Below, in pieces: positions 33,001 to 36,000 of a DNA stretch of 64,000 nt. Each line of letters opens with the position of its first letter. Position 1 is the stretch's first letter. The DNA comes from Fimbriimonadia bacterium (GTDB taxonomy: Bacteria; Armatimonadota; Fimbriimonadia; Fimbriimonadales; JABRVX01). The DNA lies in contig JBGPGO010000003.1 in the NCBI GenBank assembly GCA_041483895.1, positions 128,001 to 192,000 on the forward strand, in the 5' to 3' direction. Position numbers: made by a program.

Positions 33001-36000
33001 GCAACCTGCACGGGCGGGCCGGTGGGGGGAGTGCCGCTGCCGACAGCCGTGATCTGACCGGCCTTCTGCTTGTTCAGCGTCTCCGTGAACGCATCGACGT
33101 TATCCTTTTCGATGGTCTTCACGGGAATCTCCATAATCTTGTTGGCGGGGATCAGAGACTTGTCTCCGCGCGCCAGGGCCGCGAGAATCTTCACGGCCTG
33201 ATAACCGAACTCGTAAGGCTGCTGCACGATGGTGGCCTTGATATAGCCGTCCTTGATGCCGGCCAGCGTGTCCACTTCCTCATCGAAACAGACGATGTTG
33301 ACCTTGCCCTCTTTCTTCGCGTCCTTCACGGCGGACAAGATCATCGGGCCGTTGTAGCTCCACAGGCCCACCAAGCAGTTGATGTCGGGGTACTTCGTCA
33401 GGGTGTCTTCCGCGTTCTGCTTCGCCCTCGCCCGATCGGTCAGGTCCGTCTTGGTATCAAGAATCTCGTATTTGCCTGCCTTAATGGCGCCGGTCGCGGT
33501 TCCGGTCGAAGGCGTCTTGCCATCGTCCTTCGGGCCGCATCCGGCTAGTAACAATAACAAAATCGCCGAGGACCAAATGATTGATCGCAACCTCATGCCC
33601 TTCACCTTCCTTGTATGTCCGAGGGGAGTTTACCCATCCGAATCGCCTCGTCGATCAAGGGTGCGACGCGGGAAACCACAGCTTCTCGCTGCTCCGGAGA
33701 CATCGTAAGCCAGCCAGCGATCTCATCCAAAGTGCGGAAGCATCCGGCGCAGTGACCCTCGGGGCCGAGAATACAAATATTGCGGCACGGGGATAGAATA
33801 TCGCCAAGTTCCAAGCCGTTCTGTATAATATACCAAGGAGGTCGTCCTATGCTTGCTGTCATTTTATGGTGCGTGGCGATTCAACAACCCAGTCCCGTCG
33901 CGCTCACGCAGGAAACCCTGCCTCACATCCGAGAGCTGATTCTGCCGAAAGCGGCGGAAGAAGAATTCCAGCAGATCCCGTGGCGCACATCGCTTTGGTC
34001 CGCCGTGGTCGAGGCCAATCAGAAGGACAAACCGATTCTCCTCTGGGCGATGAACGGCCACCCGCTCGGCTGCACCTGAAACAACGGAGTCATCGCCAGG
34101 CGGGTCGTCTGGTCAAACCCCGATGTGAAGGCACTCGCCGCCAACTTCGTACCGGCCGCGGATGAGGTCTGGCGCCTGCAGCATGGGAAAGACGCCGAGT
34201 GCAAGCTGTTCCAAGGCTTTATGGAGAAGGGTCATTATGGCGGCCGCGTCCAACCAACGGACACGCGTCAGGGAACCTACTGCTGCACACCAAGCGGACA
34301 GTTCCTTGCTTCCTGCAACACGAATGACCCCAAGCAGATGGCGGGCATGCTCCGCACCGCGCTCAGCAAATGGAAAGAGATGACCCAAGCGGTCCGCCTC
34401 TCGTCGGAAGTCGAAAAGCCATCCGAGATTCAGCGACCGGAGACCAAATATCCGAAAGACGGCCTGGTCCTCCAAGTGATTGTTCGGGACCTGCCCCGAG
34501 AAGATGGCAAGTGCCCGGACGATTGGCGCAAGGACGCGTGGAACCAGGACTACGCCTGGTTCACCAGACGAGAGGCCGCGCAGCTGTTGCCGGCCACGCT
34601 AGAGGTCGGAGCGAAGGGGACGACGCCCGCAGCCCTGATCAGCCGATTGGCGCGCGCCCATCTCATCGATACGGTGCGTGGGCAGAGCTCTGCGTACCAG
34701 AACGGGGCAATCGAATCCGCATGGCTGGAAACGCGCATTGACAAGATCGCCGGCGACCGCGTTTCACTCACCCTTTTTGGGGCCTCGCAATCGAATGAGA
34801 AGGGAAGCTGGTCCGTCAACGGTTTTGCGGATATGAACGATCCGTCGGCAAACACGCGCGGGATCGACTGCAAATTGTTGGGGTCGGCCACCTACGACCG
34901 GTCCAAGGGGAAGTTCGTTCAATTCGAGCTGGTCGCCGCCGGGCAGCGCCACGGCGCGACGCAATACAATGGCCGCGCCGACGATCCCGGCCCAGCGCCC
35001 ATCGGGTTCGTGTTCCGGATCGCCCCGGACCTACCGCAAAACCATGTGGCGCCGACCAACTTTTGGGTATATAATTGGCAGTAAGTTACAAGAGGTGTTG
35101 GTATGGGCCGGTTATTATTCCTTTTCCTTTGTTTTGTGCAGACCAGCGTTTTATCGGCGAAGGTGATCTACGTTCGCACCGATGCGGACGACCAAAACAA
35201 TGGTCTCAGTTGGCAATCCGCTAAGCGTACAATTCTTTCGGCGATTGCGGCATCAGCCAATGGAGATCAGATATGGATCAAGGCCGGCAATTATGATCAG
35301 GCCCTAACGCTAGCGAAAAGCATTTCCATCTACGGAGGCTTTGCTGGAACAGAAACATCAGTTGATCAGCGCGATCTCGCCCACAACCAGACGGCTGTGG
35401 GCTCAACGGGTATCACGCTCAATATCGGTGGTCAGCTACAACAGGGTATTGTAATAGACGGCATCACCTTCACTCAACTCGGCGCAACGGCAGGGCAAGT
35501 AATCGTCTCGAATGCCGGCCCGTTGGAGATTCGAAACTGTGTATTCACCGGAATAACTCTAACATCGAATAGCATGTGTATCCATTCCGAGGTGACCCCG
35601 AAATATACAAACTGCCTGTTCAACAACAACCATGTCCCGACGTTGATTTCCTCCGACAATCTCACCGTCACAGGCACGATATTCCAGAATAATGTTGCAA
35701 CCGGAGGAATTCAAGTGCCGGGCTCTTGCGGCTTTTCCTATTGCACGTTCATCGATAACTCGATCTATCTAACGCTGAATTTCAATAACTCTGGGCAAAC
35801 CGTCTTGGATAACGATGTCTTTGCGCGTAACTCGATTTCCGGAGCAAAACCCCTCGTCTTGCTAGGAGGAACAATTCGGGCCACGAACGACACATTCGTC
35901 AATAACGCCTGCGACACATATGGGGTGCTGTCGGTTGGAACGAATCCAGGACTACTCGCAAATAACATCTTTGCCAGCAATCTATCCGGAATCGTGGCTG

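Follow-up and report, generated by a model that had tools for sequence, protein, structure and literature searches.

The stretch of DNA analysed here (the window) comprises 64,000 nucleotides of contig JBGPGO010000003.1 from a Fimbriimonadia bacterium. At 33849..35084 of its plus strand a frame runs for 411 codons, interrupted only by a TGA at codon 77 (34077..34079), and makes a complete gene if this one UGA is read through. The ATG is preceded by a perfect ribosome-binding site, seen directly in the sequence 7 nt upstream (33835-33841, plus strand), and by a -10-like hexamer (33824-33829, plus strand); chance alone would give 0.6 promoter-like matches where one was observed before the ATG, so that the promoter counts as weak evidence. 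In the protein collection the gene is represented only by a piece of 319 aa (P0171; 34125..35084, plus strand), starting behind the TGA and devoid of both the selenocysteine (Sec) and the beginning of the fold. The initial annotation had described a single 411-aa gene with an in-frame TGA at which public gene calls cut the protein, and both the reading frame and P0171 bear this out. Contigs from two of four other sediment runs bridge the TGA without difference, and it is therefore not an assembly error.

The encoded protein begins with a short hydrophobic segment (33849..33905, plus strand), a probable export signal assigned without a signal-peptide predictor. Residues 1-20 have low pLDDT in the structure model, and hydrophobic starts are found 70-85 codons upstream of the TGA in most of 24 family loci; the sequence thus suggests an exported protein. 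A thioredoxin domain with its leading helices follows at residues about 24-182 (33918..34394, plus strand), and a beta-rich C-terminal domain occupies residues about 203-411 (34455..35081, plus strand). Position 77 immediately precedes the N-terminal end of the active-site helix (residues 78-86), at the place taken in thioredoxin folds by the attacking Cys of CxxC. The candidate resolving cysteine, Cys75 (34071..34073, plus strand), forms a C-x-U arrangement with it.

On the upstream side the neighbour is a sugar-binding protein gene on the opposite strand. Downstream, a gene for a 1785-aa beta-helix repeat protein (window 35103-40460, plus strand) starts 18 nt past the stop, with no terminator-like site on the plus strand between the two genes; it is not a conserved neighbour among family loci. 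The lack of conserved gene neighbours, already noted earlier, holds for the neighbourhoods of 84 family loci, where no conserved partner gene was found, apparent real neighbours recur in at most four loci, and the five largest clusters resemble, by eye, other frames of the family gene itself.

The TGA codon and its decoding

A census of 103 loci yielded 71 distinct genes built in this way. The codon at the Sec site is TGA in 69 of them, a Ser codon in one and an Asp codon in one, and never TAA or TAG; the true stops of the TGA genes are TAG (30), TGA (25) and TAA (12), two genes running into contig ends. TGA stands at the aligned codon in all 24 loci of the GTDB collection, assigned by record titles to Fimbriimonadales and other Armatimonadota, Planctomycetota, one Verrucomicrobiota and one labelled archaeon. 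The family profile matches 41 of 401 genomes of Armatimonadota, with up to five matches per genome, and a divergent-paralogue query matches 53 of 251 genomes in the phylum of the planctomycetes, with an in-frame TGA in 77 of the 77 matches listed. Cys occupies the Sec site in 5 of 13 full-length database representatives (the other 8 are without it) and in 3 of 4 spanning database proteins of a second set. Ser, Asp, Ala and Arg forms also occur among database representatives, which suggests a non-redox role for some copies. Databases list most family members as hypothetical proteins that are cut short: of 150 representatives, 123 start just after the Sec site.

Some family members deserve separate mention. 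The full-length homologue P0152 has Trp at the Sec site and was possibly called with TGA as a Trp codon. In P0010, P0005, P0049 and P0112 the family domains are fused to large extra parts, recognised by eye as a protein kinase with a repeat region, a propeller-like region and others. A tandem pair of family genes (L205) includes one with Cys directly after Sec. The genome labelled as a methanogenic archaeon, which has SelB above the cut-off, contributes a family gene nearly alike to a Fimbriimonadaceae copy (L024), and the contig is probably a wrongly binned bacterial one.

Bacterial SECIS (bSECIS) elements are expected to have a G in the loop, to lie 16-37 nt after the UGA and to reach -7.5 kcal/mol or less (PMC13188914, section 5). 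The hairpin at 34095..34113 (plus strand; 7-8 pairs, -10.5 kcal/mol) has a G at the loop start (+23), with 22 nt between UGA and loop, and is within this consensus. Our own version of the bSECIS model is passed by 25 of 25 core genes and also by 68 of 150 control codons, so that passing it is, taken alone, a weak sign. Stronger indications of a SECIS element are its fixed position, the loop start being constant within one base in 24 of 25 core genes, and the codon choice at the Arg in position +7: AGA or AGG is used there by 21 of 25 genes, whereas these two codons account for 50 of the 815 remaining Arg positions of the same genes. The A of this codon pairs in the stem. Both bases of the top pair vary together, being G-C in 10 genes and A-U in 8 of the 25, but 31 of 500 shuffles attain the overall covariation score; RNAalifold missed the hairpin in favour of another, weak structure, and the single-sequence fold of the region has a z of -1.08.

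The tRNA-Sec, SelA and SelD reported for this genome (G000) were all found, as was the absence of a SelB gene from the 95%-complete assembly, which persisted in family, C-terminal domain and tblastn searches, contig ends included. SelD (G000:C8:71512) has its own in-frame TGA, with Sec at the active site and two hairpins after the UGA, of which the second agrees with the bSECIS model. A third selenoprotein gene, of a known kind, encodes a thioredoxin with a UxxC site and an in-frame TGA (G000:C25:39580-39819, plus strand). SelB occurs in 38 of the 40 other family-bearing genomes against 178 of 360 genomes without the family (216 of 401 in all) and, within one taxonomic family, in 18 of 19 family-bearing genomes against 5 of 28 others, a co-occurrence to be taken as a pattern and no test because kin are not independent. 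In G327, a 98%-complete genome that lacks SelB, the Sec site holds Asp.

Two readings bear on whether the gene yields a full-length selenoprotein. That the TGA is a true stop, in a pseudogene or between two coupled genes, or is read as Trp would agree with the splitting of the gene by standard callers, with the 123 representatives that begin just after the site and with the one database record showing Trp there. This is nonetheless highly improbable: the stop-type codon is always TGA, a split at the TGA would cut through a single domain of the model (pTM 0.92), the downstream starts of the truncated calls are scattered, TGA ends 430 of 1376 long ORFs of this genome, whose tRNA-Trp has the anticodon CCA, and SelB co-occurs with the family. 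It is quite unlikely, too, that the family is genuine and this genome has just lost selB, its copy being no longer made at full length. SelB did escape every search of a nearly complete assembly; against a loss, the tRNA-Sec, SelA, the Sec-type SelD, the UxxC thioredoxin and the 411-codon gene are all intact, SelB is present in both genomes of the same family, and the same gap, in one other family-bearing genome (93% complete), is about what incompleteness predicts. The SelB gene order of the relatives is not conserved here, so a gap and a loss are not distinguishable on that basis; the missing SelB is likely an assembly gap. The earlier proposal that the TGA encodes Sec, and is kept in nearly all members with Cys in a few, thus agrees with our counts: given a codon kept under selection, a SECIS-type hairpin and SelB co-occurrence, UGA77 is almost certainly read as selenocysteine.

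Probable relationship to selenoprotein N

As stated in the initial annotation, the family lacks a Pfam or NCBIfam model and its N-terminal domain is thioredoxin-like; scans of both collections, the model and the fold searches agree with this, and Rfam likewise gave no usable match. The best NCBIfam score is 14.4-17.4 bits against a cut-off of 350, and none of 122 members reaches a cut-off. The VPGUxxT (NF041382/NF041383) and Trx7/PDZ (NF041199) families likewise carry Sec in a Trx_7-like N-terminal domain, but their overlap with our HMM is weak, over about 70 residues: the scores are 14-17 bits against cut-offs of 275-350, the motif is different and no match extends beyond the start of the thioredoxin domain. 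Membership in TsoC (NEPxGxxU, NF045708), considered for its motif resemblance, was not supported, as no TsoC match appeared at E 0.1 in NCBIfam, and TsoX (NF045809) gave none at E 0.1 among the 122 members. The families of Haft and Tolstoy 2025 are reportedly contained in the NCBIfam release scanned. Structurally, the DsbD C-domain, DsbH, AGR2/AGR3 and DUF255 folds differ in their CxxC or CxxS site and in the shortness of the loop that leads into the helix, and no listed match to them covers the beta-rich domain. Table 1 of a 2026 review, with 119 prokaryotic selenoprotein families, has no entry of selenoprotein N type (PMC13188914), and the available portions of PMC13326102, PMC12013277, PMC7539508, PMC12839072, PMC8967691 and PMC4807772 contain no description of the 411-aa family. 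Table S9 of the last includes unnamed 'hypothetical' split selenoprotein candidates in two planctomycetes, which could include family members (PMC4807772).

The active-site region resembles that of selenoprotein N (SELENON/SEPN1), known from animals and some algae. In an Atlas search, to be read as a lead only, 'Selenoprotein N' was the second match (0.91) of the natural Cys homologue P0009. A metagenome scan with a short SELENON motif returned 84 stretches, from which 11 long eukaryote-type and 4 high-GC bacterial-type frames were taken, short exons and chance matches being excluded; one of the eukaryote-type frames, provided with an EF-hand, matches named SELENON records at E about 1e-93. 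The four high-GC frames (L059, L076, L091 and L117) are SELENON orthologues in the animal domain order with an in-frame TGA. Moreover, a SELENON profile matches 57 of 351 genomes in the phylum of the planctomycetes, nine loci (L172-L180) being full orthologues with both domains and a TGA. No Pfam or NCBIfam model covers the two bacterial orthologues scanned, and our literature searches, which covered listings and the papers named above, found no description of a bacterial SELENON. A doctoral thesis is said to deal with a Poribacteria SELENON, and bacterial orthologues as such are therefore probably known. The weaker profile matches examined are SELENON-type thioredoxin domains with other C-terminal parts; at least three further TGA-containing groups with such a domain at the N-terminus were seen (L182-L200, L210, L219, L221 and L231), three scanned proteins of which gave no family model above cut-off.

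When thioredoxin profiles are compared, Sec of the family aligns to Sec of SELENON, and Gly +3, Arg +7 and Val +16 likewise fall on their counterparts. The core family domain (27 rows) matches bacterial SELENON with an HH probability of 97.1% (score 70), a control of 20 ordinary Trx_7 domains with 77.2% (score 37) and animal-type SELENON alone with 20% (score 28), below the control. With paralogues included (76 rows) the values are 98.8%, 95.4% and 92.4%, respectively. The domain is thus closer to bacterial SELENON than to Trx_7, which is not so for the animal-only profile (20-92%), and it is by way of the bacterial orthologues that the specific link is made. In four divergent paralogues (L156-L159) Cys immediately precedes Sec and the helix sequence is near that of bacterial SELENON, yet the thioredoxin domain comes first. 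In a quick tree of 89 thioredoxin domains, animal-type SELENON (support 100) falls within a group with the bacterial orthologues (99), and the Trx_7 controls are apart from all SELENON-type rows (99). The 411-aa family stands outside the SELENON group, with weakly supported monophyly (53) in a tree of uncertain root; it is therefore a relative rather than a member of SELENON proper. The models of the 411-aa protein and of SELENON share their six best PDB neighbours, Foldseek/VIA matching only the thioredoxin domain of either model, and the family profile, run against PDB sequences, had no match below E 0.1. Altogether, model, folds and profiles argue strongly for a thioredoxin domain of selenoprotein N type.

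For the beta-rich domain, the first direct tests with 14 mostly animal SELENON rows remained within the shuffled range, and a chain was then built from 11 bacterial SELENON middle domains and the four divergent paralogues. The family links to the paralogues with 99.3% over 149 columns, the paralogues to the bacterial SELENON middle domain with 94.3% over 110 columns (score 52.5; best of 60 shuffles 18.6), and the bacterial to the animal domain with 99.9%. The direct comparison of family and bacterial SELENON gives 22% over 133 columns (score 28.6 against a best shuffle of 22.1), a divergent set of 30 sequences gives 93.8% against bacterial and 0.7% against animal profiles, and animal-only profiles yield 0.7-24% in all. 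As decoys, 59,393 six-frame ORFs of this genome were used, the lists leaving out those ORFs on the plus strand of C3 whose position begins with 16, among them the 411-codon gene itself. The paralogue HMM ranks nine bacterial and one named animal SELENON middle domain ahead of all decoys (best E 1.5e-4), in the opposite direction three paralogues head the list (best E 4e-5), and the broader 30-sequence HMM ranks four first at E 0.3-0.6. By eye, both models have the same order of elements: strand, strand, short helix ending in Leu-Pro, strand, helix and long strands. When the beta-domain of P0009 was submitted to the Atlas by itself, all clusters listed were unnamed, with Planctomycetota accounting for two of the three; a word-index search with a mixed SELENON alignment found only two proteins. 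No new fold is claimed, as this domain was barely tested in fold searches. SELENON-derived HMMs do not find the 411-aa protein among the ORFs of this genome, so that the homology claim rests on profiles and intermediates; by these, the C-terminal domain is, on strong grounds, homologous to the SELENON middle domain, and the protein appears to be a circularly permuted SELENON core without EF-hand or membrane anchor.

Compared with SELENON, both proteins place Sec at the helix start of the same thioredoxin subtype with a Cys shortly before, both have the homologous beta-rich domain by profile links, and both would act outside the cytoplasm, the location being predicted for the 411-aa family and, according to the accessible part of the source, the ER lumen for SELENON (PMC12839072). 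The order, however, is reversed: in SELENON the beta-domain precedes a C-terminal thioredoxin domain with S-C-U-G, whereas here an N-terminal one with G-C-T-U-N (in the C-x-U core subfamily) comes first. The family also lacks the transmembrane anchor (the model has no long helix before residue 24), the ER-retention tail and the EF-hand, for which a domain scan gave no match in the 411-aa protein and one in the SELENON control. Furthermore, it has Gln-Gly where SELENON has a Pro before the third thioredoxin strand, its SECIS is of the in-ORF bacterial type, and its identity to SELENON is too low for direct sequence detection. The bacterial SELENON orthologues are its nearest profile matches for both domains and resemble it in the in-frame TGA and an N-terminal export or anchor segment, but their domains stand in the animal order and the tree joins them to animal SELENON (99), the family remaining outside. 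Of the view that the family has no relatives, the lack of a Pfam or NCBIfam model stands; the isolation does not, as both domains link to SELENON in swapped order, and the family is better called a domain-permuted branch of a SELENON-type superfamily. Most likely, then, it is a real, unmodelled selenoprotein family and a domain-permuted relative of selenoprotein N.

Possible function and significance

We consider it probable, with good though not full confidence, that the gene encodes an exported two-domain selenoprotein with a permuted SELENON core. SELENON itself, according to the available part of PMC12839072, is an oxidoreductase of the lumen that keeps SERCA from being inactivated by oxidation. 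At residue +3 from Sec, Gly replaces the usual resolving Cys in 61 of 69 TGA genes. A Cys near Sec is found at position -2 in 55 of these genes, at -1 in another 8 and at +1 in 2, whereas 4 have none. By established thioredoxin chemistry, the selenol of Sec would be the attacking group. After export, such a one-selenol reductase may act, as SELENON does, outside the cytoplasm on protein thiols that have been oxidised. The Cys close by (at -2 here, at -1 in SELENON) would resolve the intermediate by forming a selenenyl sulfide, which an electron donor of the periplasm would re-reduce, and the beta-domain would select the substrate. For this specific proposal, a reductase that acts on oxidised protein thiols in the periplasm and whose beta-domain selects the substrate, we see about equal grounds for and against.

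A selenoprotein whose likeness to SELENON is generic, consisting of an ordinary Trx_7 or DsbD-like domain and an unrelated beta-domain with a chance or convergent motif, would explain why direct comparisons with animal-only profiles are no better than controls, why the family HMM scores AGR2 (12.2 bits) like one bacterial SELENON (11.9 bits), and why monophyly is poorly supported in the quick tree; the beta-domain link, moreover, comes mainly from the four paralogues and 11 bacterial sequences. We hold it to be unlikely, since two separate domains point to one and the same protein, SELENON middle domains come first in reciprocal decoy searches, the thioredoxin domain scores roughly twice as high with bacterial SELENON as with the Trx_7 control, and the controls form their own branch. 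More room, though still on the doubtful side, is left for a protein of the same ancestry with another job, in which the selenol binds or reduces a small molecule, as a peroxide or metal(loid) scavenger or a ligand-binding module; as it makes the same claim of identity, it competes on function only. The Gly at +3, the Gln-Gly before the third strand, the persistence of Ser, Asp, Ala and Arg forms, of which some occur in fusions with further domains, the up to five matches per genome and the lack of a partner gene would all suit it, while a Cys next to Sec in 65 of 69 TGA genes befits a redox cycle, and the fold neighbours of the thioredoxin domain are thiol-disulfide oxidoreductases.

On the preferred reading of a permuted SELENON core, it appears fairly probable that the beta-domain and the Sec-thioredoxin core are an old bacterial module existing in two domain orders. 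The reversed, soluble and exported form would be a large unannotated selenoprotein family of Armatimonadota and Planctomycetota, with several copies per genome and natural Cys versions, and animal SELENON would be one offshoot, the shared middle domain binding the substrate. The loss of SELENON, a human protein that is still poorly understood, leads to congenital myopathy; the reviews on this protein, in their accessible parts, describe only the membrane segment, the EF-hand and the thioredoxin motif, and a profile search of PDB sequences for SELENON gave only EF-hand matches. A domain swap would imply that the two core domains of SELENON work as a unit. If the relationship is true, small and probably soluble bacterial proteins with both core domains would make the fold, the interface and the chemistry of SELENON testable, the natural Cys forms needing no Sec machinery, and the structure and ligand of the unnamed shared middle domain would become workable in bacteria.
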